Assembly: GCA_016180945.1 (NCBI GenBank) | Contig: JACPAG010000003.1 | Location: forward strand, 107,394 to 171,393 | Source: Candidatus Aenigmatarchaeota archaeon | Lineage (GTDB): Archaea > Aenigmatarchaeota > Aenigmatarchaeia > GW2011-AR5 | DNA: 64,000 bases | Reading direction: 5' to 3' | Shown: positions 7,476-33,985 of the stretch, one piece after another | How the letters are laid out: each line of letters begins with the position of its first letter | Position numbering within the stretch: the first letter of the stretch is position 1 | Translations under genes and position numbers: made by a program | The notes under the pieces: generated by a model | What the model was told of the DNA's origin: nothing | Database searches by the model: none | Seen by the model: the letters and a program-made list of their open reading frames with translations, nothing else

Positions 7476-7494
7476 CGAATGCTCCCTAGGCGAA
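7476..7494 (+). repeat. putative attL core
   Basis: 18/19 identity with 19453-19471. Forms the 5' arm of a 12-bp inverted repeat (CCGAATGCTCCC / GGGAGCATTCGG at 7524-7535). Confidence 0.5.
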
Positions 7495-7619
7495 GCCAAT
7501 CTGAAACGTCATTCCCCGCATTTTGGGAGCATTCGGATTGAATTTATAGCGTGTGATAAGAATTTGAATGCGTAGAGATGTTCGAAGCACTTGATGGAAT
7601 GCAGATAAAAGATATGAAA

Positions 7620-8789: not shown

Positions 8790-8922
8790 GAGATATTTTG
8801 CTCAGAGAAAACTCTTAAATCATTGGTTGAGCCTTTGGCTCCTTTTTGAAACTTACCAAATGATATGTTTCGGATGCACTCTGAAAAATTGTATATAAAG
8901 GGTAGATTATCGTATATTTGTC

Positions 8923-10539
8923 ATGACAGTGCAAATTTCATTTGAAAAAATTGTTAAAATTTTAAGGCTACACTTCGATGGTGTCCCTCAGGAAAAGATT
9001 GCAAAAATAGTCAAAGTGTCTCAAAGCACAGTCGCCGAAACGATAATCAGGTTTGAAGAAGATGTGAGAAAATATGGAATGAAAGCAGCTTCCGAGAAGT
9101 ACGGAATTTATGACCAAATTGAAGCACTAGCCAGATTAAGTGCCGAATTGAGAAAAAACAAGATTGTAGTGGAAGAAGCAAAAGATGGTTCTAAACTGTT
9201 GGCTGAAATGTCAAAAATAGGAATCGAATCATCAGAAGTAAAAAATTTTTTAATGGCTTGTAAATCTGCCAAAAACAAAGAATTTATGAGGTGTGCCATT
9301 AAACTGACTGATTTACAGATTAGAAATGACATGTCTTATGACGAAGTTGTGACAGACTATCAAAATAAAGCTCTGCAAAAGAAGAATTTAGGTGCGGATA
9401 TTGAAAATTTGAAAGCCGAAAAGGCTCATCTGAACACTGGTATTAAAAAACTAAAGAGTAGTTTTAATAAAAGGCTCACTGAACACAATTTGAGTATTAG
9501 AAAACTCGATTATATTCTAGAAATTATACCGAAGGAAATGAAAAAGGGTGGGCTGAATTCTCAAGAAATACAGGAACTGCTGAGAGCTATACGTGATGCC
9601 ACAGGTCTTTCTGAATACTTGAAACAGGCAAGAAGAAGCAAAATCTATCTTGATTACCAAATCAATGAATCAAGAAATACCGAAAAAAGATTGTATATCG
9701 TCATTGAAAATTTGTATCGAACCAGAAACGAGTATACTGCAGAAATAAGGGAAAAAGAATCTAAGTTGGAAGGTCTTATCGCAAGAATAGAATACGCCAA
9801 CAAAAAACTGGCGCAAATGTCAAAGGCAGAAGAAAGAAAAAAAGAAAACATCATGGTAAGTAAAGCTATTCTGTCTTTCCTAGCGAGCAAAGATTCTCAG
9901 GCATGGCATATAGATGATATAATTACAACCCTGCAGGCTGCAAAATATTCGAAGAACATAAAAATGGAAGGACAATCGGTAGAGCTAATAGAATCTGCCA
10001 GAATAAAACTTGCCAGAATTATACTTCCGCTTGTTGAAAATGAACTGGTAAGCAAATCCATCTTGAATTCAAAAGAAACTGAAATCGAAACGCTAAAACA
10101 AGATATAGCCAGCAATTACGTTCTCAGGTCAGAAGTTGATGATGTTAAATCAGAGTTGGAGAAGATTAAAGAACATTCAGATAAGATCGAAGAGTCGTCA
10201 AAGAGCACTTACAAGCTTTACGAAGATAGCATAAATAAATTCACAGAATTGAATAATCAAGTAAGCGGAACGATAACGAAGTTAAAAGAGGACACTTCAA
10301 AAATTGAGTCGGAACGGGATGAATTACAAAGAAAGCTGGCTGAATTGGCTAATTCTACGGAGCAACCGCTTTTATGGTACAAGGCAAATATCAAACCTGA
10401 AGAACTTGCTTATGAGAATCTAGAAAAACTTGAGAATATAATCAAGGATGTTAGGCAAAAGAAACTTCCAACAAAAGTCCTGTCGGATGCTCTTGACCTA
10501 TTTGCAAAGCTCTATCTAAAAAATAGACTAGAAAGGTAA
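8923..10539 (+). CDS. HTH plus long coiled-coil protein
   Basis: N-terminal HTH-like QEKIAKIVKVSQSTVAETIIRF, followed by ~450 aa of heptad-like K/E/L-rich sequence. Confidence 0.5.
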   Translation: MTVQISFEKIVKILRLHFDGVPQEKIAKIVKVSQSTVAETIIRFEEDVRKYGMKAASEKYGIYDQIEALARLSAELRKNKIVVEEAKDGSKLLAEMSKIGIESSEVKNFLMACKSAKNKEFMRCAIKLTDLQIRNDMSYDEVVTDYQNKALQKKNLGADIENLKAEKAHLNTGIKKLKSSFNKRLTEHNLSIRKLDYILEIIPKEMKKGGLNSQEIQELLRAIRDATGLSEYLKQARRSKIYLDYQINESRNTEKRLYIVIENLYRTRNEYTAEIREKESKLEGLIARIEYANKKLAQMSKAEERKKENIMVSKAILSFLASKDSQAWHIDDIITTLQAAKYSKNIKMEGQSVELIESARIKLARIILPLVENELVSKSILNSKETEIETLKQDIASNYVLRSEVDDVKSELEKIKEHSDKIEESSKSTYKLYEDSINKFTELNNQVSGTITKLKEDTSKIESERDELQRKLAELANSTEQPLLWYKANIKPEELAYENLEKLENIIKDVRQKKLPTKVLSDALDLFAKLYLKNRLER

Positions 10540-10544
10540 TAAAA

Positions 10545-10640
10545 AGTAAAAAATATCGAGTGTATCGTCCAATATCGAATGAATAGGCGTCTATGCCGTA
10601 TATCTGGTGTATCGAGTATATCGAGTGTTGCATCAAGCGA
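10545..10640. repeat. iteron-like short direct repeats (candidate element origin or partition site)
   Basis: ATCGAGT at 10555, 10611 and 10620, plus variants ATCGAAT (10574) and ATCGTCC (10564). They lie at the start of a ~450-bp AT-rich non-coding gap. Confidence 0.35.
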
Positions 10641-10994
10641 ACTACTAAGAAGACGGTATTTAGAGTCTCTTAGGTGCTAATGTAGTGCCCTTATAGCTTG
10701 CTATCATAAGCCATCCTAATTACTCATCAATAATCATCACAGTTTATCAACATTTATAAGATTTACGTGAGTTTAGAAAGAAAACAGCTTGTATTCATTG
10801 TTTGGAAGCAAAGACTGCATTAAAAGAGTGCGTTACATAAAATATTGATGAATACTAAATCAAAGAAGAAACTCGAAAGAGAAGAAAGAGTAGAAGAATT
10901 TAATAAGTACCCAGAAAATTTTAATATACGACATAGACGTGATTCCAGATTACTTTGGATTCAGAGAAAAAGGAAAAAGCAATAATTACTGGCA

Positions 10995-12131
10995 TTATAT
11001 CCTTTGTTCTAGAAAATCCAATATTTTGTCCAGCTCCAAATTTGTAATATCCCTAACAAGCTTGGTAATCGAATGCGAATTTGACTTGGTAATCTCTAGC
11101 AGTTCGGGTACGGTCAGATTGCAAGCCAGTTGGTGCTTCACAGAAATCTCAATCCAGCCCAAGAGCTGGCTTCTCAGTTCTTCGTTATAGCAGTGCCTAG
11201 TCTGCTCGAATCCTTTTATAGTAAGTTTGCCATCGGGCTCAAATGATATCAGCCCTTTATTTCCGTCAGTAAAATCTCTGTGCGGTACTATGTCAAAACC
11301 TAAGTCAAATAGTCTAGTTCCCAAGTATTTATCTATCTGGGTATATCTTGCAGAAGTTTTCGCCTCAAAAACTATTGTTTCGTTATTACCATCAACTTTT
11401 TTCGTGTCCTTTACTTTTCCAAATATTTTCAACAATTGGAGCTCCCTAAGAAACCCTCCAGAAGAAATAAACTTTCTCTCTACGAGCTTGTTTATTAATT
11501 CTACATGTTTATAGGCGGCGGCATCTGGAACACCCTTGGTGCTCCACTGTATCTGATTTTCCACAAGATAACCGAGATTCTTGAACCAGTTGCATGCTAC
11601 AAATTCGCAGAACGGCTCCATACTTCCTCCTTTTGCACTTACACTGATAGGGGAGAATATAAAATTTTGAATTTCTTTGCCAGAGTCTTTAATTTTCCTT
11701 ATTACTTCGCTCAATTCCTTTCTGGTTTTTCTTTCATCATTGTAAACAAAAAGCGGAACTATAAATTTCGTACCGTGAAATAAGTCTGGATATGATTCTG
11801 AAAGTTGCAAAGCTGTGGAACCCATCAGAGGCGTTAATATGCTGGGCACCAGAACTTCATAATTTCTGAGCAGATAATCTTTTTCCAGATATTTTTCTGT
11901 ATACCTGAAATCCCGTACATAAAATCCTGTTTTTTCTGTGGAAGCTGGTGTAAGTTTTTTCTCCTCATCCAGCATGACAAAATCTCCAGTACAGTCCATA
12001 AACAAAAAAGCAGTTCTGACATCAGTTTTGATAATTTGTCCTAAGAACTCGTCATTCACCATTTCAAATTGGTCTGGAAAATTGGTCGTTAGTATTTTTA
12101 TGAACTCTTCTTTGCCAATATTCGGAATCAC
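10995..12131 (-). CDS. hypothetical protein, possible PD-(D/E)xK nuclease fold
   Basis: 378 aa. EFVACNWF...GVPDAAAYK...IVFEAKTS resembles an E...PD...ExK arrangement, but the spacer is long, so the call is weak. Confidence 0.35.
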   Translation of the reverse strand: MIPNIGKEEFIKILTTNFPDQFEMVNDEFLGQIIKTDVRTAFLFMDCTGDFVMLDEEKKLTPASTEKTGFYVRDFRYTEKYLEKDYLLRNYEVLVPSILTPLMGSTALQLSESYPDLFHGTKFIVPLFVYNDERKTRKELSEVIRKIKDSGKEIQNFIFSPISVSAKGGSMEPFCEFVACNWFKNLGYLVENQIQWSTKGVPDAAAYKHVELINKLVERKFISSGGFLRELQLLKIFGKVKDTKKVDGNNETIVFEAKTSARYTQIDKYLGTRLFDLGFDIVPHRDFTDGNKGLISFEPDGKLTIKGFEQTRHCYNEELRSQLLGWIEISVKHQLACNLTVPELLEITKSNSHSITKLVRDITNLELDKILDFLEQRI

Positions 12132-12146
12132 GATGTATCACCTAAA

Positions 12147-12365
12147 TCACCCCAAGCTCCTGTTCAACTGCTCTAGTGCGCCTTTAATGTTCATTATGTC
12201 GCTGGTAACATTCTGCTGAATCTTATTGGCGTCTACATCACTTGTAACTTTGACAGGCTGCGTAACTTTTGTCGGGTAAACGCTGACATAAGCAAATGCA
12301 AGCAATAGGACTATGATTATCCCAATCAAAATGTACATCGTCTTCTTGTCTTTCTTTTTAGCCAC
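12147..12365 (-). CDS. small single-pass membrane protein
   Basis: 72 aa. Basic N-terminus, then the hydrophobic span MYILIGIIIVLLLAFAYV. Overlaps the end of the upstream LamG gene. Confidence 0.5.
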   Translation of the reverse strand: MAKKKDKKTMYILIGIIIVLLLAFAYVSVYPTKVTQPVKVTSDVDANKIQQNVTSDIMNIKGALEQLNRSLG

Positions 12366-13674
12366 CTAAAATCACCCTAACAATAGCATCTACTACGAGG
12401 AGAATATTGCCAATCCGATTCTTTATTTCAATTATGTCAAGCTGTGTTGGTGCATCCTTTACAGAATTTATGTAATTCTCTGTCTGTGTAATATTGGCTA
12501 GTCCGTAGCCAAAGTGCATCATAACAGCAGACCATTTTCCTGCATTGTTTGTATCGTTTATAGAATCGTAATAATTGAACAGACCTGCCGCAGAATTGTT
12601 TAGAGAGACAAAAGACGTTTTCAACGTTTCCATCTGAATCAATATTCCAAGAAGAACTGTCTTATCTACTAACTTTGCTCCGCATTGGCAGATATTGGTT
12701 ATGCATCTTTCAGTATCGTTTCCTATTATTTGTGGGCATGTTATTTTTCCTGCACACTCAGAATCTAGAGCGCACGACAGATTTTGTGTTGCAGGCACTG
12801 TAGTTGTTGTAGTAGAAGGCGGAACTGTCGTTGAGGATGAAGCTATAGTAGTAGGTATAGTTTGAGGAATTGTTGTCGTTGTGGTTTGATTCGTCTGATT
12901 CAGTGATATTGTTGTTGTAGTTGCTGTAGTAACTGTTATAGTCGTGGTAGTTTGATTTGTCTGGTTTGTTGGTATTGTTGTTGTAGTAGTTTGATTAACA
13001 GGAATTGTAGTTGTGGTAGTTGTTGGTGACGGCATTGCAGTAGTAATTCGCACTTCATCAATTATACCGCCAAAAGCCACATCAGAATAGCCATCGTTTC
13101 CTATAATAAGCGGAGCTGTAACTGCTTTGATATTTCCCAAATTCAGGCTTTTTGTCGAGTCTAGAACATCATTTATGTAGAACTTTACTGTCGAACCGTC
13201 ATAAGTGGCTGCTATATGAGTCCATGCATTTAACGGCACAGTGCCATCGCTCCTAGCTGCATTTCCAGAAGATGGGCTATTTATGTAAAGGGCTAGTCCA
13301 GCTCCTTCAAAAGTAAGTAAATACGAAAGCGAGCCAGAACCGTATCTGCCAATAATTCTGCCATATTTAGTCGGATAAACCCACGCTTCTAAAGTTATCT
13401 GGTTAGTTATTCCTTCCGTGCTGCTGGACGATACAACCACAGCATCATTAACGCCGTCAAAGCTCAATGCATTGCCATACTTTCCTGTCGTCCATGTAGC
13501 CCCATCGACTGTTCCGTTAAACCTGCCAGTCTCATCTTTGGCAAGACTACCAGAGCCTTCGTTAAAGTGCCATAAGGCTACTGTGTTGCTATTTACAGTG
13601 TATTCTTGGGCATAGGAGAGGGTAGAAAATAATGTAAAGGTTAGGATGAGAAGCAGAATAGGTGTATGTTTCAT
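12358..13674 (-). CDS. secreted LamG (concanavalin-A-like lectin) domain protein with Thr-rich linker
   Basis: Signal peptide MKHTPILLLILTFTLFSTLSYAQE from the ATG at 13674. LamG_3-like blocks LWHFNEGSG...GNALSFDG...LEAWVYP...WTHIAATYDG...FGGIIDEVRI. Then a T-rich linker and a Cys-containing C-terminal domain. Confidence 0.75.
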   Translation of the reverse strand: MKHTPILLLILTFTLFSTLSYAQEYTVNSNTVALWHFNEGSGSLAKDETGRFNGTVDGATWTTGKYGNALSFDGVNDAVVVSSSSTEGITNQITLEAWVYPTKYGRIIGRYGSGSLSYLLTFEGAGLALYINSPSSGNAARSDGTVPLNAWTHIAATYDGSTVKFYINDVLDSTKSLNLGNIKAVTAPLIIGNDGYSDVAFGGIIDEVRITTAMPSPTTTTTTIPVNQTTTTTIPTNQTNQTTTTITVTTATTTTISLNQTNQTTTTTIPQTIPTTIASSSTTVPPSTTTTTVPATQNLSCALDSECAGKITCPQIIGNDTERCITNICQCGAKLVDKTVLLGILIQMETLKTSFVSLNNSAAGLFNYYDSINDTNNAGKWSAVMMHFGYGLANITQTENYINSVKDAPTQLDIIEIKNRIGNILLVVDAIVRVILGG

Positions 13675-13789
13675 ATAAAATTCATTATTCTCCACTCCTT
13701 TTAAATCTATTTCTTTCGGATAGTTTATCAACTGATAGATTAGTATATCGCTTAAAAGGAGTTTCCCTATATTTGAATAGGGAATACTC

Positions 13790-14107
13790 ATGCGATATGC
13801 ACCAAAGAAGTGGAGTTCGGTAGCGATACTTATGCGTGACTCAACTTATTCTGTGCTCGAGACACTTGTAGAGAAGCCGAAAGGCTGGAAAGAGTTAAAA
13901 GACGCTACTGGCTTGACAGATGGTGGTTTGCAAAAGGTTCTGAAGGAATTAGTAAAAAGTAATGTCGTGGAGGAGGTACTTGTCGAGAATCCATATGGTC
14001 TCAAGCAGAAAAAGTATGTCATTACTTCGAAAGCGAAGAAAGAGAGGATATTCGAAAAGGCGAAGGAATTGAAAGAGGCACTTGAAAGGTTATCAAAAAA
14101 AGGTTAA
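13790..14107 (+). CDS. winged-HTH transcriptional regulator (ArsR/MarR-like)
   Basis: 105 aa. YSVLETLVEKPKGWKELKDATGLTDGGLQKVLKELVKSNVVEE is a typical wHTH pattern. Confidence 0.6.
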   Translation: MRYAPKKWSSVAILMRDSTYSVLETLVEKPKGWKELKDATGLTDGGLQKVLKELVKSNVVEEVLVENPYGLKQKKYVITSKAKKERIFEKAKELKEALERLSKKG

Positions 14108-14111
14108 AATA

Positions 14112-15122
14112 ATGGAAGCTACAAGTTTGGTCGAGAATAAAGAAAAATTACTTGCGTTTTTAATCAATAATTCTGAAGACATATTTAAAAAAATTTATGA
14201 GTTAAAGAAAAATAACATAGGTAGTATTCTATCAGAATTTTATATTTCTAGAGGATTCTGGGAAGACTATAGAAATTTTGAAAAGGTTTTACTTTTCATT
14301 AAAAGCAGCAGAGAAAAAGATTTATTGGAAAAACTGGAAAATAACTTATTACCCAATTATGTTAAAGAATTAATTGAATATTTTGAACTATTCAAAGAAG
14401 GTTGTAAAAAATATCCAAATGTGGAAAAATTAATACTATTCGAATGTAAAGTGAATGTGGACAAAGGATTTGAAAATCTTATAAACTTTTTAACAGAAAA
14501 TCCTAAATTTCAAAAATTTCTTCCAGAAACAAAATTAATCCAATGTTATTTCTTTTCAAAGAAAACTTTTATCCTCAAAAATTGGTTTGGATTTTATTAT
14601 AAGGAAGAATTACAAGAAGATGTTGCTAGATACATGATGAGAATTTTTGATTATTATTTTTCATCTTTAGACAACATTTTCTTTTTATACGCTAAAATTT
14701 TTAAAATTCCAACTGTTGAGCATACAATAAAAATTATTGAAAAAGATTTCATTCCTAAAAATTATGATATTTTGCCAAAAAGAGAGCAAATTTTATATTC
14801 TGAATGCTTGAATAGTATGAAATCAGGTTTAAGTAATTCTACGGTTTTGCTTAGTGGAGTTATTATTGAATCTTTACTTAAGAAAATACATAAAGAAGTA
14901 GAAAGACAGGAATTTAAGAGTAATTTTGAAGATTTAATTAAATGGATGAAAAACAAACTTGGAGTGAAAACAGACCCATTTGCTGACGGTTTAAGAAAAA
15001 TTAATAACTATGCAAAACATGATGTAGATTTTTTGGCTGGTGTTGATGAAGCTAAACTCTCTCTATTAACATTAAAGTATGTTGTTGAGAATCTAAAATC
15101 ATATTTAGATGAATTGGAATGA
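14112..15122 (+). CDS. protein with C-terminal DUF4145-type HEPN-like domain
   Basis: C-terminal ~110 aa read ...LLSGVIIESLLKKI...GLRKINNYAKHD...EAKLSLLTLKYVVENL. The R-x3-N-x3-H spacing is as in the DUF4145/Abi-type HEPN motif. Start taken at Met 14112, after the upstream stop. Confidence 0.5.
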   Translation: MEATSLVENKEKLLAFLINNSEDIFKKIYELKKNNIGSILSEFYISRGFWEDYRNFEKVLLFIKSSREKDLLEKLENNLLPNYVKELIEYFELFKEGCKKYPNVEKLILFECKVNVDKGFENLINFLTENPKFQKFLPETKLIQCYFFSKKTFILKNWFGFYYKEELQEDVARYMMRIFDYYFSSLDNIFFLYAKIFKIPTVEHTIKIIEKDFIPKNYDILPKREQILYSECLNSMKSGLSNSTVLLSGVIIESLLKKIHKEVERQEFKSNFEDLIKWMKNKLGVKTDPFADGLRKINNYAKHDVDFLAGVDEAKLSLLTLKYVVENLKSYLDELE

Positions 15123-15178
15123 ATTAAGTTGAACTGTGGCGGTAAATAATTAGTGCTGGTCATCCGCTCTCTGTAAAA

Positions 15179-15547
15179 TTATAAGTTTCTAATTTCTTCT
15201 ACTGTCATATAACCTTCTGTTAGAGTCTTTTCTGGCATAAAGTATGAGAGTCTCTTAGGGTCTAAACAATAACCCTTGTACCATGCATAATGCACTTTCC
15301 TTGTAACGTCTTTTATCTTTGATGGGTTTGAACCAGAAACAGTACCGACTGCAATCATTTCCTCATCTGGTGTTTTTTGCCTGTCTTGTTTAACAATTTT
15401 TGAATACAGCTTCTTTGCGATAGCCTGTAATTCATTCTTCATTTGTTGTGGATTATCCTTACTTACATCGTACCATTTTGTAACTTCAAAAGATTCATTA
15501 GGAGAATTTATCACAACAATCAATTGAATTAAATTAATCTTACTCAT
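15179..15547 (-). CDS. hypothetical protein
   Basis: 122-aa ORF with no recognised motif. Divergent from the 15604 gene. Confidence 0.45.
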   Translation of the reverse strand: MSKINLIQLIVVINSPNESFEVTKWYDVSKDNPQQMKNELQAIAKKLYSKIVKQDRQKTPDEEMIAVGTVSGSNPSKIKDVTRKVHYAWYKGYCLDPKRLSYFMPEKTLTEGYMTVEEIRNL

Positions 15548-15603
15548 TTAATCACCTATAATTAAACATTACTTTAGCATACATTTTAATATTCTTGAAA
15601 TAG

Positions 15604-16746
15604 ATGATCCTTATGCAAGACGAGAAACTCAAAGAACGTATATCTTTATTAATGCGATTCTTCTGGTTAGATGACTTATTCAAAATTGGAAAAGAGTTAA
15701 ATCTACTATTCTTTGAAAAGATACAAAATTATTGGGAAATGAATCAGTATCAAGCTGCTACTGAGATAGCAAGAAACATTGACGATACTAAACTGCTTGA
15801 ACTTACAAAGAAGTATATTCCTAAGTATGGATTACAATTAGGCGGATTTCATGGAAAATACTATACTACAACAGAGACTGGTGAAATTAGATTTGAAGAC
15901 TCAAGTAACCTCATAAAGACAAATGTTCAGAAAGCTCTTAAAAAATGGGGAGACAGAGCATACGGGTTACTTCAAGCAATGGTAAATAAAAATGGTCATG
16001 TTACATACTTTGACCTTATAGATGAAATTGAAAAGGTATTAGGCTACGAATTTATTCCATCTTATCTTCTTTCAAGATTTGCACCATTAAACCTTGTGTT
16101 CAAAACAGGTAGCAATAAATACCCAGACTGGACAATGCCAAGTGAGATAATTCCAATAGTTCAAGAAGAATTAAGGAATTTCAAACGTCCTGCACGTCGA
16201 TACCTCACTAAAGAAACACCTGATATACATTTACTAAAAATTGAAAAAGAAACTAGTAGTATTGTTGATAAAATTGTTGAATTTAGACGAAATATCAATC
16301 TTCTCTTTGAACAAAAATTTAAGACTAAGTTTTTTAAACAAAATGAAATGGCAATTAATGATATACGCAAACCGTGTAGCAACGAAGAAGAGTTTAATAA
16401 TAGAATTATGAGCCTCGCACTTTTAATAGACGAAATAGAAACTGAAAGTATTTTGAAGCTCGTTACAAGTAAGCCGCAATATGGTTCTATAAATATACTT
16501 GAGAGTTTTCTAAATGAGAAATATCCTAATTACAATAAAACTATTATCAAAAATTTGAGATTTATAATGACTCTAAGAAGTAAAAAGTATCCAGTTCATC
16601 GTGATGATGTGGCTTTGATAGATGCATTGGGCTATTTTGGTTTTACAGAATTGCCTCCTGACTGGCAAGAATTATGGGAAGCTTGTCTAAAAAGATACTT
16701 GGATAGTATCCAAGGTCTAATATCCATTCTTATAGCAACTAGTTGA
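15604..16746 (+). CDS. hypothetical protein with central wHTH-like segment and C-terminal HEPN-like R-x6-H motif
   Basis: 380 aa. C-terminal helical region contains NLRFIMTLRSKKYPVHRDD (R-x6-H). Lies 22 nt upstream of the cyclase gene on the same strand. Confidence 0.4.
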   Translation: MILMQDEKLKERISLLMRFFWLDDLFKIGKELNLLFFEKIQNYWEMNQYQAATEIARNIDDTKLLELTKKYIPKYGLQLGGFHGKYYTTTETGEIRFEDSSNLIKTNVQKALKKWGDRAYGLLQAMVNKNGHVTYFDLIDEIEKVLGYEFIPSYLLSRFAPLNLVFKTGSNKYPDWTMPSEIIPIVQEELRNFKRPARRYLTKETPDIHLLKIEKETSSIVDKIVEFRRNINLLFEQKFKTKFFKQNEMAINDIRKPCSNEEEFNNRIMSLALLIDEIETESILKLVTSKPQYGSINILESFLNEKYPNYNKTIIKNLRFIMTLRSKKYPVHRDDVALIDALGYFGFTELPPDWQELWEACLKRYLDSIQGLISILIATS

Positions 16747-16786
16747 TAGACATCAAAATAAAAAACTTTTGTATAATTATATTACT

Positions 16787-17737
16787 ATGCCTACCAAAGA
16801 CAATATATTCAGAATGGATTTTATACAGGAAATAGAAAGTGTGGATGAAGAAAAAAGAACATTCAGAGCAAGACTTATACCTAATCCAGAAAGATATGAA
16901 GTCAAGGAAATAAATGGAGAAAAAGGTTATTATGATAAATTTGACAACTTTTTCATATCTCTTAAAGAAATAGAAAAGGGGCTTAAGAAAAGTATAGGAG
17001 CACCGATTTTTTATACCCCACCTAAAATAAGAGATAGTTTGGAGTATACAAAATCACGAATACCAGAAATAAAAAGGCATTTTGAAGAAGACACAGAAGA
17101 TTACGTATTCTCTGATGCTTCAGAAGAATTCCTAGAAACTTTGCCGCAAGGTGAAAAAACATTTGTAATTTTGAATATAGATTTAATGGGTTCTACAAAA
17201 ATGAGCCAAGAACTTGAAAGTGAAGAGAATGCAAAAGTTATTTCATTATTCTCAAAAGAAATGGCACTCCTTGTTCATGCATTTAATGGTTATGTGTTGA
17301 AGTATTTAGGTGATGGACTTATAGCTTATTTTCCAGAACCAAATTTTAATGGAATGAATGATAATGCACTAGACTGTGCATCTTCAATGAAATTGTTAAT
17401 ACTTTGCGGAATAAATCCTGTGTTAAAAGAAAAGGGTCTGCTAGAGTTGAGTTTTAGAATAGGACTTGATTCTGGCGAAGCAACGGTAGTTATAGTTGGT
17501 GCTGACAGAATCAAAAAACATAAAGATTTAATAGGAGAAACTATAAATTTGGCGTCTAAAATTCAGAGTATAGCTGAGAAAAATCAAATACTAATTGGTG
17601 ATGCTACTGCAAGAAATGTTCATACTTTTTGGAGAAAATTACTTATAAAAAAAGAGCTTCTTCCAAATTGGGAGTATACAGTTAGAAATACAAAGGAATT
17701 CTATCCACTATATTTTTTGAAAGAACCTAACATATAA
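16787..17737 (+). CDS. class III nucleotidyl (adenylate/guanylate-type) cyclase domain protein with unknown N-terminal domain
   Basis: Cyclase homology blocks FVILNIDLMGSTKMS, GYVLKYLGDGLIAYFPEP, SFRIGLDSGEATVVIVG and DLIGETINLASKIQSIAEKNQILIGD. Both metal-binding Asp positions are present. The ORF track starts at TTG 16769; the first ATG is at 16787. Confidence 0.75.
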   Translation: MPTKDNIFRMDFIQEIESVDEEKRTFRARLIPNPERYEVKEINGEKGYYDKFDNFFISLKEIEKGLKKSIGAPIFYTPPKIRDSLEYTKSRIPEIKRHFEEDTEDYVFSDASEEFLETLPQGEKTFVILNIDLMGSTKMSQELESEENAKVISLFSKEMALLVHAFNGYVLKYLGDGLIAYFPEPNFNGMNDNALDCASSMKLLILCGINPVLKEKGLLELSFRIGLDSGEATVVIVGADRIKKHKDLIGETINLASKIQSIAEKNQILIGDATARNVHTFWRKLLIKKELLPNWEYTVRNTKEFYPLYFLKEPNI

Positions 17738-17845
17738 GAATTTTATTTAAGCTTTCTTTATCCTTGTCACAAGATTAATTTACACTTGTAGTAAGAATTA
17801 CAGAGAAAATAAGAAGAATGTAAAAATAATAAAACTAACGCTTTT

Positions 17846-18007
17846 CTACTTCCTTATGAACGCCATCGACCCAACAGCCACTGCAAATCCGCCTGCAAAC
17901 ATGGCGTCCAGTACAGGATACATGGCTGGGCTTGCTGTCAAGTTCAGGAAGAAACCCGACAAAGCTGCCACAATGCCTATAGACCCGACTGTTCTCCAGA
18001 AATCCAT
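17846..18007 (-). CDS. 53-aa predicted two-TM protein (below the ORF-track cutoff)
   Basis: Manual translation: MDFWRTVGSIGIVAALSGFFLNLTASPAMYPVLDAMFAGGFAVAVGSMAFIRK. Lies downstream of the integrase on the same strand and is convergent with the cyclase. Confidence 0.4.
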   Translation of the reverse strand: MDFWRTVGSIGIVAALSGFFLNLTASPAMYPVLDAMFAGGFAVAVGSMAFIRK

Positions 18008-18082
18008 TTTTACCACCTCTTTTGTTTATAGCCCTCTACATATAGGGTATGTAAAAAAGAAAATAATGACAGTGCTTTCACC

Positions 18083-19399
18083 TCATTTTTCCGCCTTTAA
18101 CATCTCAATCCAGTTCTTCATTCTTTCAAATTTCTCTAAAAGTTCCTCTTCATCGGCTGGATTCCTGCCGCCGCTTATGGTAACTTTTGCCTCTTTCATG
18201 CCCGTCTTTTTCAGCTTTTCGTTAGCCACGTAATCGAAAAATCTCTTCTGGTAATTTCTGTCCTGTTTCAGCATAAAATCGCCCATCGTTTCTTTCATTT
18301 CTTTGATGGCGAGCTCCCTCTCTCTTTTCTTCTCGTCCAGTATGAGACCACAGCGACCACAGAAATCTACAGTGGCAGGGTTCTGCATCCTGCATCTGAT
18401 ACATACTTTCGGTTTTAATTTTGACTTTTCTTTTTCCGTTTCCTCTTTCTTTATGCCGTATACGTTGAGCAGCGCATTATCAACGTCCCTGCCTGACAGA
18501 TGAACGTAAGTGGCTGCCTGACTTGAACGCTGCGTCCATCCGAATATTTCCTTAAGCTGTGCTTCTGTCAGCTTGTTCGCCAGCTCTGTTGCTCTGGAAT
18601 GCCTGAACAGATGCGGGTGTATCTTCTTTTTTATCCCAGCCTTCTCGCCTAGATTTTTCAGCATCATGGCTATTGCGCCGTAGCTCATCATTTTGTTCTT
18701 GTTCTTTGTGCCGATGCCCAGCCACAGAAAAGCGTCTGGATTGTCTTTCTCTGGATGGATGCTGACCCATGACCACAAAGAAGGAGATGATGCGATTAAT
18801 CTAACCCTTCTGTCGCCTGTCTTTCCGCTGACATGGATAACTGCCCCGTATTCGTCTGATTCGAGATTTTTCAATTTCAGCGTTGCCATCTCTCCGATTC
18901 TGCAACCAGATTCGTACAAACAGAAAACCAGTGCTTTATCTCTGGGATGGTCTGCGACATTAACCATCGTTATTATTTCGTCCTGCGTGAGCATGTCGTC
19001 TGGAAGCTTGTGGCTGTTGTTTCTTAACGTGGCTTTCAGCCATCTGACTTCTGGCGGATATTCATCGCTTTTTCTCAGCCATCTGTAAAATCTTTTGCAG
19101 ATTACACGGTAATCTTTTTTCGTGTAGTCCGCAAGAGGAGAAGTTTCTATAGTCCTGAAAATTCTTTCAATGCCTTCCCTGTCAGCATCTTCAAAATCCT
19201 TTTTGACAAGCTCGGAAATTTTTTTCAGGTGAGAAATATATTTTATGACTCTTGCCCTGCTGAGACCTTCAGAAAAAAGATAATCGCAGAATTTCAGGAT
19301 TGTTTTTTTATTCTGTTCCGAAGTTTTAAAATTGCCGATTCTTTTCAGCGTGGATTTCAGTCCCTGCTCGTAATTATGGAAATCCACTTTCACGCCCAT
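18083..19399 (-). CDS. tyrosine recombinase / integrase (XerC/D-like) with C-terminal zinc-ribbon extension
   Basis: Catalytic blocks SGCRIGEMATLK (Arg), HPHLFRHSRATELA (H-x-x-R) and AATYVHL (Tyr). Extra C-terminal CIRCRMQNPATVDFCGRCG, then a helical tail. Confidence 0.85.
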   Translation of the reverse strand: MGVKVDFHNYEQGLKSTLKRIGNFKTSEQNKKTILKFCDYLFSEGLSRARVIKYISHLKKISELVKKDFEDADREGIERIFRTIETSPLADYTKKDYRVICKRFYRWLRKSDEYPPEVRWLKATLRNNSHKLPDDMLTQDEIITMVNVADHPRDKALVFCLYESGCRIGEMATLKLKNLESDEYGAVIHVSGKTGDRRVRLIASSPSLWSWVSIHPEKDNPDAFLWLGIGTKNKNKMMSYGAIAMMLKNLGEKAGIKKKIHPHLFRHSRATELANKLTEAQLKEIFGWTQRSSQAATYVHLSGRDVDNALLNVYGIKKEETEKEKSKLKPKVCIRCRMQNPATVDFCGRCGLILDEKKRERELAIKEMKETMGDFMLKQDRNYQKRFFDYVANEKLKKTGMKEAKVTISGGRNPADEEELLEKFERMKNWIEMLKAEK

Positions 19400-19452
19400 A
19401 GATTATTTATGCCCCGCCTAGTATTTAAAGGCGGAGCATCTCGATTGCATTT

Positions 19453-19625: not shown

Positions 19626-19754
19626 TACCACACATACCACCAATCTTTAGATGGTGGTAGTATCAGTGGTATGTGGAGTGTAAAAAACACTGCTATAGTA
19701 TCAGTGGCATCAGATCTAATAGATGTCACTGCATTTATGCAGTGGTTTTTCACA
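19626..19754 (+). repeat. family-B nested-hairpin element, copy 1
   Basis: Upstream hairpin CCACATACC...GGTATGTGG, then outer stem TGTAAAAAACACTGC (19679-19693) / GCAGTGGTTTTTCACA (19739-19754) enclosing an inner hairpin. The same frame occurs at 25210-25287. Confidence 0.6.
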
Positions 19755-19804: not shown

Positions 19805-20440
19805 ATGGCACCCGGTTCAAAAATAACACAGCAAGAGGTATGGGGCTCAATAGCCGAGCCATGGCACCGGGCAAGAACAAGAATGTATGACGACCTGAAG
19901 GAGTTTCTAAGAAACAACACCGGCAGAAATTTTGTGCTGGATTTGGGCTGCGGCTCCGGCCGCAGTTTTATGGCAGGCAAAAAATACGTAGGCGTGGATT
20001 TTTCTGAAAATATGTTAAGGCATGCGAAACAGAATGCAGAGAAAAATGGAATAGAAGCTCACTTGGTTAAGGCTGATGTATGCCACCTGCCTTTCAAATC
20101 AAATTCATTCAATACGGCCCTGCTTGTTGCCACCCTCCATTCAATGGAAGACCGTGCCATGTGCTTGGAAGAAATGAAAAGGGTTATGGAAAAAGGCAGC
20201 GAAGCCTTCGTAACCGTCTGGAACAAAAACCAGCCAAGATTTTTAATGTCAAAAAAAGAAAGCTATGTGCCTTGGAAAGTAAGCGGCAAGATTTATTGGA
20301 GATATTATTATCTTTTTGCCGAAGGGGAATTAAGAAAACTTCTCTCCGCCTACTTTAACGTCAAAAAAATATACGGCGGCAGGGAGAGGGTTTTAAAGTT
20401 ATTCCCGAAGAATATTATCGCTATCGTGAAGAAGATGTGA
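19805..20440 (+). CDS. class I SAM-dependent methyltransferase
   Basis: Motif I VLDLGCGSGR, then a post-I acidic residue and Methyltransf_11-like layout. Confidence 0.8.
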   Translation: MAPGSKITQQEVWGSIAEPWHRARTRMYDDLKEFLRNNTGRNFVLDLGCGSGRSFMAGKKYVGVDFSENMLRHAKQNAEKNGIEAHLVKADVCHLPFKSNSFNTALLVATLHSMEDRAMCLEEMKRVMEKGSEAFVTVWNKNQPRFLMSKKESYVPWKVSGKIYWRYYYLFAEGELRKLLSAYFNVKKIYGGRERVLKLFPKNIIAIVKKM

Positions 20441-20475
20441 TTTTCCAGTTTTTTAGCCTATATTTAGAGATTCAT

Positions 20476-20578
20476 GCGGGGGTACCCAAGTGGCCAAAGG
20501 GGCTAGATATCTGAAAATAGGCCATGCTTAGGACCTAGTGGCTTAGTGCCTTCGCAGGTTCGAATCCTGCCTCCCGCA
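20476..20578 (+). tRNA. tRNA-Leu (anticodon TAG) with a 19-nt intron at position 30/31
   Basis: GCGGGGG-TA-CCC-AAGTGGCCAAA-GGG-G-CTAG[ATATCTGAAAATAGGCCAT]G-CTTAGGA-CCTAG-TGGCTTAGTGCCTTC-GCAGG-TTCGAAT-CCTGC-CTCCCGC-A. The long variable arm indicates a class II tRNA. Confidence 0.8.
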
Positions 20579-20696: not shown

Positions 20697-20717
20697 CAGG
20701 ATAAAATGTATCAAGTC

Positions 20718-20836
20718 GCGAGAGTAGCCAAGTCAGCCCGGCATCTTAGAAGATGCCGTTCCTTGATTGGTCAAAGGCGCAAGGTTCAGGGCCTTGTCCC
20801 TTAGTGGGTTCGTCGGTTCAAATCCGGCCTCTCGCA
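20718..20836 (+). tRNA. tRNA-Leu (anticodon CAG) with a ~35-nt intron in the D-loop
   Basis: GCGAGAG-TA-GCC-AAGT[CAGCCCGGCATCTTAGAAGATGCCGTTCCTTGATT]GGTCAAA-GGC-G-CAAGG-TTCAGGG-CCTTG-TCCCTTAGTGGGTTC-GTCGG-TTCAAAT-CCGGC-CTCTCGC-A. Without the insert the D-loop (AAGTGGTCAAA) matches that of the neighbouring tRNA-Leu. Confidence 0.8.
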
Positions 20837-20838
20837 TC

Positions 20839-20993
20839 AATTATCGGATTTCCGTGAAGAAAATAATTTTCTTCAGGATGCCAAAGAACTTTTAGTTCTT
20901 TGAGCATGAACCTCGGTTCATCTTCGGCTGAGCGAAGCTCGCCGAGACCTCAAAGAAGCTCTGCTTCTTTGCAGGAATCCGGCCCTTCGCATC
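20839..20993 (+). repeat. hairpin array bracketed by a duplicated tRNA-Leu(CAG) 3' end
   Basis: AATCCGGCCTCTCGCATC (20821-20838, tRNA 3' end) recurs as AATCCGGCCCTTCGCATC (20976-20993). The 137 bp between them are consecutive hairpins. Confidence 0.55.
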
Positions 20994-21035
20994 TGCTTTC
21001 TTTAAAAAGAAAGTAGCCAAAGAAATTCATTAATT

Positions 21036-21452
21036 ATGTACCGAAAAGGAGTTCTTGGAATAGTAATAGACAAACGCAAGAGATTTCTTATTCTGTGCCG
21101 TGTCCTTCACTGGCGCGGCTGGGAATTCCCGAAAGGCGGCATAGATAAAGGCGAGACCGCCGAAGAAGCGCTGCTTAGGGAAGTAAAAGAAGAAACCGGG
21201 CTGGATGCAAAAATTATCTGCAGAATGCCATACGTAATTACTTATGATTACCCTGAAAGTTTCATAAAAAAGACAAAAACAAAATATGCCGGTGCAAAGC
21301 AGACGGTCTATCTTCTTTTAGCTGGCGGCAGTGTAAAGTTGTCCAAAGAACACAAAAAATTCAGGTGGGCCTCTTACAAGCAGGCAAGAAAGCTGTTGAA
21401 ACACGAAAGCCAGAAGAAAGCTCTTGATGCCGCTTACCAGTATGTTATCTAA
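21036..21452 (+). CDS. Nudix hydrolase
   Basis: Nudix box GGIDKGETAEEALLREVKEETGL. Confidence 0.85.
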   Translation: MYRKGVLGIVIDKRKRFLILCRVLHWRGWEFPKGGIDKGETAEEALLREVKEETGLDAKIICRMPYVITYDYPESFIKKTKTKYAGAKQTVYLLLAGGSVKLSKEHKKFRWASYKQARKLLKHESQKKALDAAYQYVI

Positions 21453-21566
21453 GAAGACATTGAAAACTGCCGTCTTTAGACGGCAGATGAAATACAATGT
21501 CTTCTGGATCCCATCTTCTCACAAACCACCGACTTTAGTCGGTGGTATATAAAGAAGATGTGATTT
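21447..21566 (+). repeat. family-A modular nested-hairpin element, copy 1 (120 nt)
   Basis: Frame ATCTAAGAAGACATTG...CAATGTCTTCTGGATCCCATCTTCTCAC...ACCACCGACTTTAGTCGGTGGT...AAGAAGATGTGATT, with one extra hairpin (CTGCCGTCTTTAGACGGCAG). Its TAA supplies the Nudix gene stop codon. Confidence 0.8.
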
Positions 21567-22690: not shown

Positions 22691-23443
22691 TTATAAACAT
22701 TTTTTAGTACCGCAGGCTAAATAAGACTCTGAAACTATTAAAGCAATTGGCATTAGATTATCGGGAAATTTTCTTGAAATTTTAGTTACTCTACCAAAAA
22801 TGTTTAAAAAATATTTCTGAAGCGGCTTGGGTACAAGAGGCAATTCGTCGTTGCCCTCTGTGAAAATAGGCAGGCGAATAATCGCGGGTTTTAAGGTTAC
22901 GTCATCAAAAAACTGTGAGAATAGCCTGCGAAGCACTCTATAAGACACCTTTTCCTGACAGAACTTTTCTTTCTTCCATTTTTGCATATAGACAAAATCC
23001 CAGAAGCACGGCTTTGACTTTGTTACGACAACTAGCTTGCCGTTATCCCTTAATAGATTGTTGAACCGTTCGATTGCCGCCGCCTTGTCCTTTATGTATT
23101 CAAAAGAGCGCACAGCAAAAATCTTGTCGAATTTGAAGTCAGTTTGTGAAAAGGAATCGGATAATAAGAATTTTACATTTTTTCTATTTACATACCTTTT
23201 TGCCCGTTTCAGCATATCTTTTGATATGTCTATGGCAATTAATTTTTTGCATTTTTCGGCTATTAATTTTGTCCATACGCCAGGGCCGCAGCCAACCTCT
23301 AGAATTACATCATTTTCTTTGGGCTCCAAGTATTCCAGCAGGATGCTTTTGGTAAGGGAATAATCTGACCTCGCAACAGCCGACTTAAGCCATTGGCTAT
23401 AGGCATACGTTTTCGATAGAATATCCCAGTAATGAGCCTTCAT
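22691..23443 (-). CDS. class I SAM-dependent methyltransferase
   Basis: Motif I ILEVGCGPGVW, followed by LIAIDIS. Confidence 0.8.
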   Translation of the reverse strand: MKAHYWDILSKTYAYSQWLKSAVARSDYSLTKSILLEYLEPKENDVILEVGCGPGVWTKLIAEKCKKLIAIDISKDMLKRAKRYVNRKNVKFLLSDSFSQTDFKFDKIFAVRSFEYIKDKAAAIERFNNLLRDNGKLVVVTKSKPCFWDFVYMQKWKKEKFCQEKVSYRVLRRLFSQFFDDVTLKPAIIRLPIFTEGNDELPLVPKPLQKYFLNIFGRVTKISRKFPDNLMPIALIVSESYLACGTKKCL

Positions 23444-23446
23444 AAT

Positions 23447-23536
23447 TATCTAAGAAGACATTGAAAATGTCTTCTGGATCCCATCTTCTCACAAACCACC
23501 GACTTTAGTCGGTGGTATAATAAGGAAGATGTGATT
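23447..23536 (+). repeat. family-A element, copy 2 (minimal 90-nt frame)
   Basis: TATCTAAGAAGACATT-GAA-AATGTCTTCT-GGATCCCATCTTCTCACAA-ACCACCGACTTTAGTCGGTGGT-ATAATAAGGAAGATGTGATT. Fills the spacer between the methyltransferase start and the lysS stop. Confidence 0.8.
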
Positions 23537-25162: not shown

Positions 25163-25287
25163 ATCTGGCATTCCACTGTTTTAAAACAGCGGTGGAGTGG
25201 AATGCTGGCTGTAAAAAACACTGCATTAATATCCGTGGCTTCAGTAATCGTAAAGAAGCCACTGCCTTTAGGCAGTGGTTTTTCACA
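25163..25287 (+). repeat. family-B nested-hairpin element, copy 2
   Basis: Upstream hairpin CTGGCATTCCAC...GTGGAATGCTGG, then TGTAAAAAACACTGC (25210-25224) / GCAGTGGTTTTTCACA (25272-25287) enclosing GTGGCTTC...GAAGCCAC and CACTGCCTTTAGGCAGTG. Confidence 0.6.
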
Positions 25288-31589: not shown

Positions 31590-31877
31590 ATCTAAGAAGA
31601 CATTGAAAACTCCTACCTTTAGGTAGGAGATGCAAGCAAAAGCAAAGCTTTTGCTGCACAGAAAGACCTGAAGGGTCTTTCTTGTGAAATACAATGCAAG
31701 CAGAAAGCAAAGCTTTCTGATGCTACAGAAAACAAGGTTTTCTGTATGTCTTCTGGATCCCATCTTCTCACACAAGAAGGAACCGTGTTCCTTCTGTGCA
31801 GACAACGAAGAACCTTTTGTTCTTCGATGTCTTGCAAACCACCGACTTTAGTCGGTGGTATACAAAGAAGATGTGAT
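31590..31877 (+). repeat. family-A element, copy 3 (expanded, 288 nt)
   Basis: Same frame as the other copies, plus seven additional perfect hairpins: five inside helix 1 and two inside helix 2. Confidence 0.8.
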
Positions 31878-32732: not shown

Positions 32733-32767
32733 ATGGTTCTGATGGTGAGAAACCGCAGGTGTCTTAT

Positions 32768-33985
32768 ATGTGGTGGGAGAGTCCAGGGCATCTTGATGTG
32801 AAGAACGGCCGGCTTTACATAGCCGGCATGTCCGCCATTGACATAGCCAACAAATTCAAAACGCCATTGTATGTTTATGATGGAAATCGTATCATGGATA
32901 TTTACAGAAAATTCTACAGTACAGTAAAGAAGCATACAGATTTAGAAGTCCGTCTGCATTATGCAATGAAAACCAATTCGAACAGAAAAATCCTTCAACT
33001 GCTTCTTAAAGAAGGCGCGTGGATAGACGCCGTTTCGCCGGAAGAGTGCAAAGCGGCTTTGGAAGCCGGCTTCCTGAAAGAAAAAATACTGTTCACAGGC
33101 ACTAGTGTTAGCAGCGAGGACATGAAACAGCTCGTCGGCATGGATGTAAGAATTAATATCGATTCATTGTCGCAGCTAAAGAGACTCGGTAAAATAACAA
33201 CAGATGCGGAAATCTCGCTGCGAATGGACCCCGGCATAGCCGGAGCCGGCCACAGCTGGCGGACAATGACAGCCGGCAAAGAGTCGCATGGCGTGCCGAT
33301 AAAATTTTCTATCCCCGAAAACCAAATAGTGGAAGCTGCAAAGCTAGCAAAGGATTACGGCTTTAACGTAGTAGGCCTCCACGAACACATAGGCTCTGGA
33401 TGGCGTACCAGTGAAGAGGTAAACGAGTTTCTGCAAACAGTTGATATAGTATTGGACAAAGCAAAGCAGATAAGCGAGTTCTGCAATTTAGAGTTCATAA
33501 ACTTCGGCGGCGGGCCCGGCGTTAGGTACCAGGAAAACCATCCGGAATTTCCTTTAGAAAGATATGCAGAGGAAACATGCAGAAAAGTAAAAGAGTCTGG
33601 AGTTGAAATAAATGCGTTATGTTTCGAGCCCGGACGATATATTGTTGCTGATTCAGGTCTGCTGTTAGTCGAAGTAGTCGACGTAAAGGAAAGATACGGC
33701 GACATCATAGCCGGCGTCAACAGCGGCTTCAACCATCTTATTCGTCCCGTAATGTACGGCTCTTACCACGAGATAATAAACTGCTCTAAAGCGGACGCAA
33801 AACCAGAAGCAGAAGTAACGGTAGCCGGAAACCTATGCGAAACCGGCGACGTATTCGCAGCAAAAAGGATGATGCCGATGCCGGAAGAAGGCGACGTTCT
33901 TGCCATACACAGCGCAGGCGCATACGGTTTTACGATGGCATCGCGATACAATATGCGAAGCCTGCCGAAGGAAGTTTTGTTGTAA
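32768..33985 (+). CDS. lysA: diaminopimelate decarboxylase
   Basis: HYAMKTNSN (PLP Lys), HEHIGSG and EPGRYIVADSG. The ATG at 32768 follows the shared leader GAGAAACCGCAGGTGTCTTAT. Confidence 0.9.
   Translation: MWWESPGHLDVKNGRLYIAGMSAIDIANKFKTPLYVYDGNRIMDIYRKFYSTVKKHTDLEVRLHYAMKTNSNRKILQLLLKEGAWIDAVSPEECKAALEAGFLKEKILFTGTSVSSEDMKQLVGMDVRINIDSLSQLKRLGKITTDAEISLRMDPGIAGAGHSWRTMTAGKESHGVPIKFSIPENQIVEAAKLAKDYGFNVVGLHEHIGSGWRTSEEVNEFLQTVDIVLDKAKQISEFCNLEFINFGGGPGVRYQENHPEFPLERYAEETCRKVKESGVEINALCFEPGRYIVADSGLLLVEVVDVKERYGDIIAGVNSGFNHLIRPVMYGSYHEIINCSKADAKPEAEVTVAGNLCETGDVFAAKRMMPMPEEGDVLAIHSAGAYGFTMASRYNMRSLPKEVLL

Follow-up and report, generated by a model that had tools for sequence, protein, structure and literature searches.

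The described systems closest to the repeats reported here are the palindrome-associated transposable elements (PATEs) of Haloquadratum walsbyi (PMC3119063) and the insertion sequences of the IS200/IS605 type, with the ends of IS608 (PMC5027513). We compared these and other hairpin-bearing systems with family A, a family of nested-hairpin elements with five copies in a 64,000-nt stretch of DNA (hereafter the window) from Candidatus Aenigmatarchaeota archaeon, contig JACPAG010000003.1, positions 107,394 to 171,393. Our analysis suggests that family A is a non-coding repeat multiplied in the intergenic spacers of one Aenigmatarchaeota (DPANN) lineage, and that it is a non-autonomous element moved as folded single-stranded DNA in an HUH-like manner, as IS200/IS605-derived PATEs or repetitive extragenic palindromes (REPs) are; we assign this mode of movement a probability of about 0.45. 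That family A is a selfish or semi-selfish mobile repeat is very probable.

Family A shares many properties with PATEs and the ends of IS200/IS605 elements. Neither is long enough to code; terminal inverted repeats and an evident target duplication are missing from both, and both carry palindromes near the two ends together with a short oligonucleotide conserved on the 5' side and a similar one on the 3' side. Like those elements, family A has co-oriented copies and appears to be single-strand specific, and both have internal-deletion derivatives and other small elements nested inside. PATEs insert 3' of a tetra- or pentanucleotide; for family A, the tetranucleotide TNAT was found at 31 of 31 sites and one empty site fits, with an AT duplication being possible as well. 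In contrast to PATEs and IS200/IS605, no related transposon and no TnpA or TnpB was found for family A in about 0.4 Mb of sequence, its hairpins vary freely, both of its termini lie on one internal palindrome, its right-hand motif is located within a helix, and its host belongs to the DPANN archaea.

REPs and bacterial interspersed mosaic elements (BIMEs) (PMC2817692) resemble family A in being abundant, extragenic, GC-rich hairpins that form mosaics of units of variable composition, and in that movement in trans by an HUH enzyme is proposed for them. The original prediction, made from the letters of the window alone, had pointed to bacterial mosaic repeats as similar in concept, which we consider apt. 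Membership in REP/BIME is nevertheless ruled out, as family A has no GTAG head, has a single rather than an alternating orientation, has a longer unit with a fixed frame, and is accompanied by no REP-associated tyrosine transposase (RAYT) that we could find. [quoted passage not shown] The hairpin and double-hairpin elements of fungal and sponge mitochondria (PMC2800124) consist, like family A, of short perfect-hairpin units that are often paired, spread into spacers, vary from one close relative to the next, and lack a known enzyme; they differ in residing in organelle genomes, in their unrelated sequence, and in having no conserved long-range frame or junction motif. Integron attC sites (PMC9668308) and family A both act or fold as a single strand with a conserved stem imperfection and a variable, sometimes branched interior, and both show several-fold length variation and co-oriented copies. 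However, the ends of attC pair together via the R''/R' (RYYYAAC/GTTRRRY) and L''/L' boxes and the sites occur in cassette arrays, often with IntI; family A shows neither the pairing nor the arrays. The ends of family A pair with its centre, there is no AAC...GTT core, and the copies are spaced 2–15 kb apart among housekeeping genes, so the attC reading was rejected.

We built a covariance model, R1, from 11 canonical copies. The five copies in the window, all on the + strand, were re-located as follows.

21447-21564, + strand: copy 1, canonical 118-nt form, frame plus hairpin P1a at 21467-21486 (R1 144.6 bits)
23448-23535, + strand: copy 2, bare frame, 88 nt (R1 85.7 bits, E 1e-15)
31590-31877, + strand: copy 3, 288 nt, frame plus seven extra hairpins, with the 3' arm of helix 1 split by one double-hairpin module
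46799-47038, + strand: copy 4, 240 nt, with GATGAACATTG as its helix 1 variant and with modules in the P3 loop as well as between helix 2 and hairpin P3
59880-60159, + strand: copy 5, 280 nt, helix 1 variant AGATTCATTG, seven extra hairpins

Placement and strand agree with those proposed in the original prediction, with ends differing by no more than 1–2 nt. The frame it described as common to all five copies holds overall, with copy 5 deviating (GGGATCCCATCTTCCAAC), and its bare-frame copy indeed carries the frame only, without extra hairpins, at 88 nt and not 90. Copies 3–5 each contain five to seven additional perfect hairpins. These had been placed inside the helix loops; optional perfect hairpins they are, but the module in copy 3 interrupts the 3' arm of helix 1. 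Across the whole window, the core GGATCCCATCTTC occurs exactly five times, always within a copy, and the 5' 21-mer motif has no match in shuffled sequence. Of the six occurrences of the 3' arm GAAGATGTGAT, five are within copies. The remaining one, at 20431-20441, coincides in part with the stop codon of a methyltransferase gene (19805-20440) and is probably due to chance, since the orthologue at a related public locus (L035; such loci are cited here by L number), which has the same frame and stop position, matches only 7 of the 11 bases. Perfect hairpins of at least 8 bp number 43 in the window as compared to 3.9 in shuffles; 36 of them fall in the intergenic 12% of the sequence and 24 within family A. 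Family A makes up about 1.6% of the window, at 78 copies per Mb.

The copies occupy 79–100% of their spacers, and copy 1 provides the TAA stop of the Nudix open reading frame (ORF) at 21036-21452. All four arrangements of flanking genes occur, in keeping with the earlier statement that the copies keep to a single strand whatever the gene orientation, and the low-GC island at about 7.4–19.4 kb is free of family A. Flanking genes are ordinary or housekeeping ones, encoding Nudix, GT2, methyltransferase, class I lysyl-tRNA synthetase (LysRS), DapL, DapF, radical SAM, FlaI-like, and KaiC-like proteins. The LysRS and the LL-DAP aminotransferase are 100% identical to proteins annotated as coming from a Candidatus Aenigmarchaeota archaeon. 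The 5' junction of copy 3 is found again in two independent Logan assemblies, both of which break off within the copy. The five copies are true members of one repeat family and not an assembly artefact.

Folded with RNA or with DNA parameters, copies 1 and 2 gave z-scores from -6.5 to -10 for both strands, and the folds recovered the two helices, helix 1 and helix 2, on which the predicted frame was based. The bare frame of copy 2 folds as helix 1, helix 2, and the ACCACCGAC hairpin, with the following parts.

23453-23475, + strand: helix 1 hairpin, AGAAGACATT / AATGTCTTCT, loop GAA
23449-23452 with 23475-23478, + strand: outer extension of helix 1, TCT(A) paired with (T)GGA
23476-23481, + strand: central palindrome GGATCC, GGAT pairing with the 5' ATCT and ATCC with the 3' TGAT
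23478-23488, + strand: 5' arm of helix 2, ATCCCATCTTC
23495-23516, + strand: hairpin P3, ACCACCGAC-TTTA-GTCGGTGGT, in which 6 of 9 pairs change on both sides
23525-23535, + strand: 3' arm of helix 2, GAAGATGTGAT, ending in TGAT with T opposite C (the conserved mismatch)

Helix 1 reaches the very first base of the element, where ATCT pairs with the GGAT of the central GGATCC via a conserved T.G wobble; the same site is a C-G pair in L032 and in the L024 copy at 5872. At the other end, the 3' terminus (GAT or TGAT) pairs with the ATCC of the same palindrome. With the 5' end on GGAT and the 3' end on ATCC, the two termini thus lie side by side on an internal splint, and one strand folds from its first to its last base. 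This pairing of the termini with GGATCC, together with the junction motif described below, was missed by the earlier note.

The covariation alignment comprised 26 distinct sequences and 37 pairs in four helices. Standard pairs filled 97.3% of the cells, and 24 of the 37 pairs change on both sides. Compensated cells numbered 151 as compared to 42 in shuffles, with none of 500 shuffles reaching 151, and in a control with partners slid by one to three columns only 27–53% were paired. All 10 pairs of helix 1 change on both sides across the family, in which this helix appears as at least five unrelated sequences (GAAGACATTG, GATGAACATTG, AGATTCATTG, GAATGCGCC, and GAAGGCGTCC), and the last hairpin appears as at least four (ACCACCGAC, ACCTGCGGT, ACCCACGGC, and ACCCACACC). 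Helix 2 hardly varies, although L010 and L028 show covariation in it (CATGTTC/GAACATG), with the C.T mismatch retained. This mismatch, which had been said to occur in all copies, is present in nearly all of them, the exceptions being two divergent copies, with a U to C change in L033 and a second adjacent C.T in the L024 copy at 5872. The unpaired stretches GAAAAC, TCACAAACC, and GGTATAYAAA are conserved. The optional parts are double-hairpin modules, and homologous modules covary from copy to copy. They recur at four positions.

Module position 1: inside the loop of helix 1
Module position 2: within the 3' arm of helix 1 (copy 3)
Module position 3: between helix 2 and the last hairpin
Module position 4: in the last hairpin's loop (in L033, that of the first hairpin)

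A small repeat family elsewhere in the window (2260-2374 and 3287-3395), with two or three perfect hairpins and purine-rich stems (TCGAAAAG, AGAAGGAC, and others), has stems that resemble these optional modules.

We examined the distribution of family A beyond the window with an exact two-part pattern, scanned over 185,579 species genomes. Two genomes have true matches: a metagenome-assembled genome (MAG) labelled Methanosarcinales and an Aenigmatarchaeota MAG, in which a 918-kb scaffold begins inside a copy. The other two of the four matches in the genome collection (L001 and L004) were chance matches in coding, MgtE-like sequence. An 18-mer search revealed 25 genuine loci in JGI and ENA metagenomes from groundwater and sediment, including Hainich groundwater; the matches L012, L018, L023, and L026 were chance coding sequence. 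R1 recovers all known copies plus divergent ones that lack the 18-mer, and in total about 30 further copies were located on unrelated public contigs. Family sizes range from 88 to 288 nt without a conserved reading frame, and the commonest form is 116–120 nt long. Comparison of all copies with Rfam 15 gave nothing at gathering thresholds, and the best permissive matches were hairpin look-alikes such as psRNA14 (28.8 as compared to a threshold of 60 bits), in agreement with the original prediction, which did not recognise a described archaeal element or RNA family in it. ARAGORN reported nothing at the copies, the pattern scan of IMG/VR gave 0 matches, blastn against phage and plasmid collections gave no match, and literature searches found no description of the element. 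Family A is thus undescribed in the databases and papers searched, and its architecture and host are new among small structured repeats.

The boundaries of the element were compared across copies. Among 31 distinct 5' flanks, position -2 is T in all 31 and position -1 is T in 24, C in six, and G in one; the flank is variable beyond -2, and the 3' flank is variable from +1. The left junction thus reads T-N-A-T^ and the right end T-G-A-T^, where ^ marks the boundary. In copy 2, the two features derived from this are as follows.

23446-23449, + strand: TTAT (TNAT) at the left junction, the tetranucleotide proposed as target and cleavage motif
23450-23535, + strand: mobile unit of copy 2 under the TNAT model

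Either motif, the left TNAT or the right TGAT, can pair with the one central ATCC; the invariant T then faces a C, and this C.T is the conserved mismatch of helix 2. The conserved junction T could also belong to the element and not to the target. (AT)CTAAGAAG at the 5' end and GAAGATGTGAT at the 3' end match as inverted copies only over ATC/GAT, and terminal inverted repeats are absent; helix 1 begins at base 1–6 and helix 2 runs to the last base. When ...GTGAT is joined to CT..., the helix is uninterrupted across the hypothetical circle junction in 21 of 21 distinct copies, and the modelled product of such joining would be a dumbbell-shaped circle with a junction reading GATGTGAT^CTAAG.

Two sister families, B and C, have the same layout and the same TNAT^...TNAT^ ends as family A. 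Family B is represented in the window and in L029 (5291-5390), and family C in L028 (3589-3695); both can sit opposite in strand to family A on the same contig. The copy in the window has TTAT^...TTAT^ junctions and is described below.

6754-6851, - strand: family B element (R1 E 0.004), with helix 1 enclosing a hairpin and with a second hairpin, without the conserved helix 2

Empty sites were found in a relative in SRR22387757 (LysRS 86% and radical SAM protein 90% identical), in which the spacers of copy 1 (Nudix–GT2) and copy 4 (GT2–radical SAM) contain no element. At the copy 1 site the relative (L034) reads CAGTACGTGAT^TTAAG (GTGAT^TTAAG) and the window reads CAGTATGTTAT(CTAAG...GTGAT)TTAG, with the element in parentheses and GTTAT preceding it; insertion after (G)T(G/T)AT leaves the Nudix C-terminus as V-I-stop in both. 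An R1 search of about 70 kb from the closest relatives found no copy. An empty site for copy 3 was sought and not obtained, the nearest long-contig relative (L039) having another gene order. Identical copies occur in different flanks, the one at L028 3449-3564 being the same as that at L030 5308-5423, and L010 1573-1740 the same as L024 5951-6118. Tandem and degenerate copies exist as well, and the L029 spacer syntenic to that of copy 5 holds a different, degenerate copy. Assemblies break inside copies, including two independent assemblies of the window's own strain that end inside copy 3.

On six contigs with several copies (the window with 5, Ga0209211_10001939 with 2, L010 with 2, L024 with 3, L028 with 3, and L029 with 2), all 17 copies are oriented alike within their contig. 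The chance of full co-orientation is 2^-11 if copies are independent and about 1/64 when tandem neighbours are discounted. The element is co-oriented with its upstream gene in 22 of 31 cases and with its downstream gene in 20 of 32, a mild bias that is expected if genes and elements both follow replication.

Several observations concern the surroundings of the copies. In near-identical JGI contigs (L005/L008, L020, and L027; L006/L014), the element and one flank are common while the other flank differs, and homology starts or stops exactly at the element ends; these breaks could reflect recombination between copies or chimeric assembly. Genes absent at the same place in relatives adjoin several elements: the methyltransferase gene 22691-23443 beside copy 2 (compared with L034 and L035), the ZIP transporter gene 5952-6773 beside the family B element (absent there in L035), and HicB/HicA 59423-59866 beside copy 5 (absent there in L029). 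PIN and Fic toxins are among the neighbours of elements in the metagenomic loci L024, L028, and L029.

G.T pairs occupy about 1% of cells in the helices; their number in comparison with A.C pairs (7–8 against 4–6) shows no clear excess, counts that are too sparse to discriminate RNA or strand. Most pair changes are double transversions. In three cases the loop has been reverse-complemented on the same stem, and one such flip (TT to AA, positions 87–88) is the sole difference between two 116-nt copies. DNA palindromes flip their loops and keep their arms matched by template switching, as in quasipalindrome correction and in the small hairpin inversions of organelles. The rare wobbles and flipped loops thus point to hairpin dynamics at the DNA level and, because DNA palindromes keep their arms matched anyway, covariation shows that the hairpins form and not that an RNA is selected. 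Loops on the + strand are T-rich (28 as compared to 3). Together with the T.G wobble and the C.T mismatch, these make three uncorrected imperfections, which indicates that one strand is active.

The original prediction had left open a structured non-coding RNA (ncRNA), a MITE-like element, and a transcription or replication punctuation signal. Taken together, the empty sites, the different flanks of identical copies, the contig-wise orientation, the TNAT junctions, and the scarcity of wobbles along with the flipped loops favour MITE-like, mobile DNA, and the other two readings less. Of the outcomes that the prediction had named as refuting it, none arose: Rfam gave no match, covariation proved strong, numerous copies were located elsewhere, and an assembly artefact was excluded. 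Family A looks like transposase-less mobile DNA rather than a known RNA gene. In the mechanism that we propose, folded single-stranded DNA would be the form in which the element moves. It would be cut 3' of TNAT at both ends, leave as a circle, and re-insert 3' of a TNAT in single-stranded target DNA at a replication fork, the putative mover being a trans-acting HUH tyrosine transposase, as for IS200/IS605, PATEs, and REPs with RAYT. Single-strand insertion at the fork would give all copies on a contig the same orientation regardless of genes. The double-hairpin modules would be structural add-ons or nested insertions, possibly gained and lost through hairpin-driven replication errors.

Several results weigh against this proposal. 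Pfam scans of the larger ORFs of the window and of ten ORFs beside element clusters found no Y1/HUH transposase, no TnpB, nor any other transposase, and among 1203 stop-to-stop ORFs from the window and the loci no transposase was detected by phmmer, with IS200 and IS608 TnpA sequences as queries, or by a zinc-finger heuristic; this screen spanned about 0.4 Mb of partial genomes. The sole weak match in the transposase search was a PIN toxin. A full-length element, with the 5' and 3' motifs kilobases apart, was not found either. Membership in the PATE or IS200/IS605 group is unproven because no transposase was found; moreover, IS200/IS605 hairpins are conserved in sequence with cleavage sites outside the stems, whereas the hairpins of family A vary and its right-hand motif lies inside helix 2. 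A 2-nt AT duplication or crossover fits the junction data equally well. The only empty site at base level is that of copy 1, which comes from a relative with a diverged spacer, and the empty site of copy 4 (L040) is too diverged for a base-level boundary. As GC skew tracks gene strand, it gives no replication direction with which to compare copy orientation. Finally, the T-rich loop bias and the T.G wobble indicate that one strand matters, but RNA would fit them too.

A structured ncRNA family transcribed from the + strand, either a trans-acting small RNA or an omega-RNA-type guide scaffold, is in our view unlikely. In this case, the variable 3' flank would be the guide and the optional hairpins would be expansion arms, and the sharp element end followed by variable sequence would fit. 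All four helices covary strongly, unpaired stretches are conserved, the conserved T.G wobble and the strong loop bias both concern the + strand, and the optional arms occupy fixed positions as in many large RNAs. Yet no Rfam family matches, wobbles amount to about 1% of cells with mostly transversion-type double changes, and the unrelated flanks leave no room for a shared upstream promoter, copies being found in all orientations relative to genes. Copy 1 extends over a stop codon, and the 94-nt spacer that copy 2 fills is flanked on both sides by genes to which the copy is antisense. Pfam scans of selected ORFs, with the zinc-finger heuristic over the remainder, revealed neither TnpB nor IscB, and close relatives lack any copy (in about 70 kb), which is odd for a functional RNA. 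This last point also bears on a host element acting in cis on messenger RNA or DNA, for instance a REP-like 3' stabiliser or terminator, or a strand-polar replication or segregation signal, since close relatives manage without copies. Such a role, to which we give the slimmest chance of all, would agree with the intergenic, spacer-filling location of all copies, with the upstream gene being co-oriented in 22 of 31 cases, and with a single-strand polarity per contig of the kind that polar chromosomal signals show. It is at odds with the antisense position, relative to both neighbours, of copies 2 and 4 as well as of the L022 and L032 copies, with the lack of a T-run after the element, with the threefold length variation, and with the existence of tandem and degenerate copies.

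It is also distinctly unlikely that a tyrosine or serine recombinase uses family A, folded as single-stranded DNA, as a recombination site (attC-like or CTX-phage-like) at which crossover in the AT common to both junctions would insert or shuffle accessory genes. AT is present at both ends and the central GGATCC pairs with either, so that the joined form is a continuous duplex like a double-stranded core site with one conserved mismatch; homology breakpoints fall exactly at element ends, and attC sites have been reported in Aenigmatarchaeota (PMC9668308). The termini are not paired to each other, however, the attC motifs RYYYAAC/GTTRRRY are absent, and the accessible supplements of PMC9668308 do not contain the family A motif. 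Lineage-specific neighbours would suit this explanation (the methyltransferase at copy 2, ZIP at family B, HicAB at copy 5, and PIN or Fic in L024, L028, and L029), but the extra gene does not lie consistently on one side of the element, and toxin-antitoxin genes are so common in these genomes that adjacency may be due to chance. There are no cassette arrays, the copies being 2–15 kb apart with LysRS and diaminopimelate-pathway genes among their neighbours, and the single recombinase of the window is part of the 12-kb island. Slightly less probable still is that family A represents a self-splinting mobile nucleic acid, or the first abundant DPANN-specific structured RNA/DNA family with a biological role. 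In the self-splinting variant, the central GGATCC would align the element's own two ends, and possibly the TNAT target, and host nucleases and ligases, or an enzyme class not yet tied to transposition, would excise, circularise, and re-insert the dumbbell circle, so that no transposase of the element's family would be needed.

The share of the window that family A takes up shows that structured selfish or semi-selfish repeats, which family A very probably represents, can thrive in DPANN genomes even though these are very small and streamlined. Copies coincide with gene-order differences between relatives, and metagenome assemblies break at them. The R1 model can serve as a lineage marker and as an aid to repairing fragmented assemblies. 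The architecture, consisting of a fixed outer frame, interchangeable double-hairpin modules, and both termini plus the junction motif paired to one palindrome, is new and has not been described for REPs, PATEs, MITEs, or attC sites. It points to a testable manner in which a single-stranded element could expose the sites where it is to be cleaved. A partner enzyme, if found, would extend HUH-type (or other) single-strand transposition to DPANN archaea and might give a compact, structure-guided DNA insertion system.

The window contains several other features, listed below.

7400-19400: island with a GC content of 30–38% as compared to about 45%, ending in a tyrosine integrase gene (18083-19399, - strand), with Schlafen/AlbA_2, LamG-like, and adenylate-cyclase-domain genes
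19665-19754 and 25196-25287: hairpin-containing direct repeats of about 90 nt, 80–83% identical and 5.5 kb apart
20474-20570 and 20716-20835: tRNA-like genes with acceptor and T arms and extra inserts
20836-20995: region with a second copy of the 3' end of the second tRNA-like gene
44723-44824 and 45701-45802: 102-nt direct repeat, 88% identical, duplicating the 3' end of a radical SAM gene
60994-61124 and 32743-32770: motif GAAACCG(C/T)AGGTGTCTTATATG
48837-49032 and 54656-54842: degenerate coding repeats of 18–30 nt

By synteny, the island is absent from the related MAG GCA_053537215.1, where L035 has 1.4 kb in place of 12.5 kb in the window. The two tRNA-like genes were not detected by ARAGORN or by Rfam, even at E<=0.01. 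In L035, the orthologue of the first bears one more hairpin, in the D-loop region; the second holds the hairpin CGGCATCTT-AG-AAGATGCCG, the stem of which repeats the helix 2 core. The duplicate of its 3' end (GGAATCCGGCCCTTCGCA as compared to CAAATCCGGCCTCTCGCA) lies about 130 nt further on with three perfect hairpins in between, and may be a remnant of integration or of the insertion of a hairpin module. The 90-nt direct repeats bracket a segment containing a methyltransferase gene, the tRNA-like genes, Nudix, copy 1, GT2, a second methyltransferase gene, copy 2, and LysRS. The 102-nt repeat brackets a 0.9-kb insert with two ORFs without a Pfam match (45121-45600 and 44817-45128). The GAAACCG(C/T)AGGTGTCTTATATG motif occurs three times at 60994-61124, in a stretch just upstream of the gene that starts at 61110 and extending into it, with a single further occurrence at 32743-32770; it may be an operator or promoter motif. 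The degenerate coding repeats (CATCAACATCNAC-like) are located inside ORFs of 722 and 988 aa and are low-complexity stretches, probably of surface proteins.

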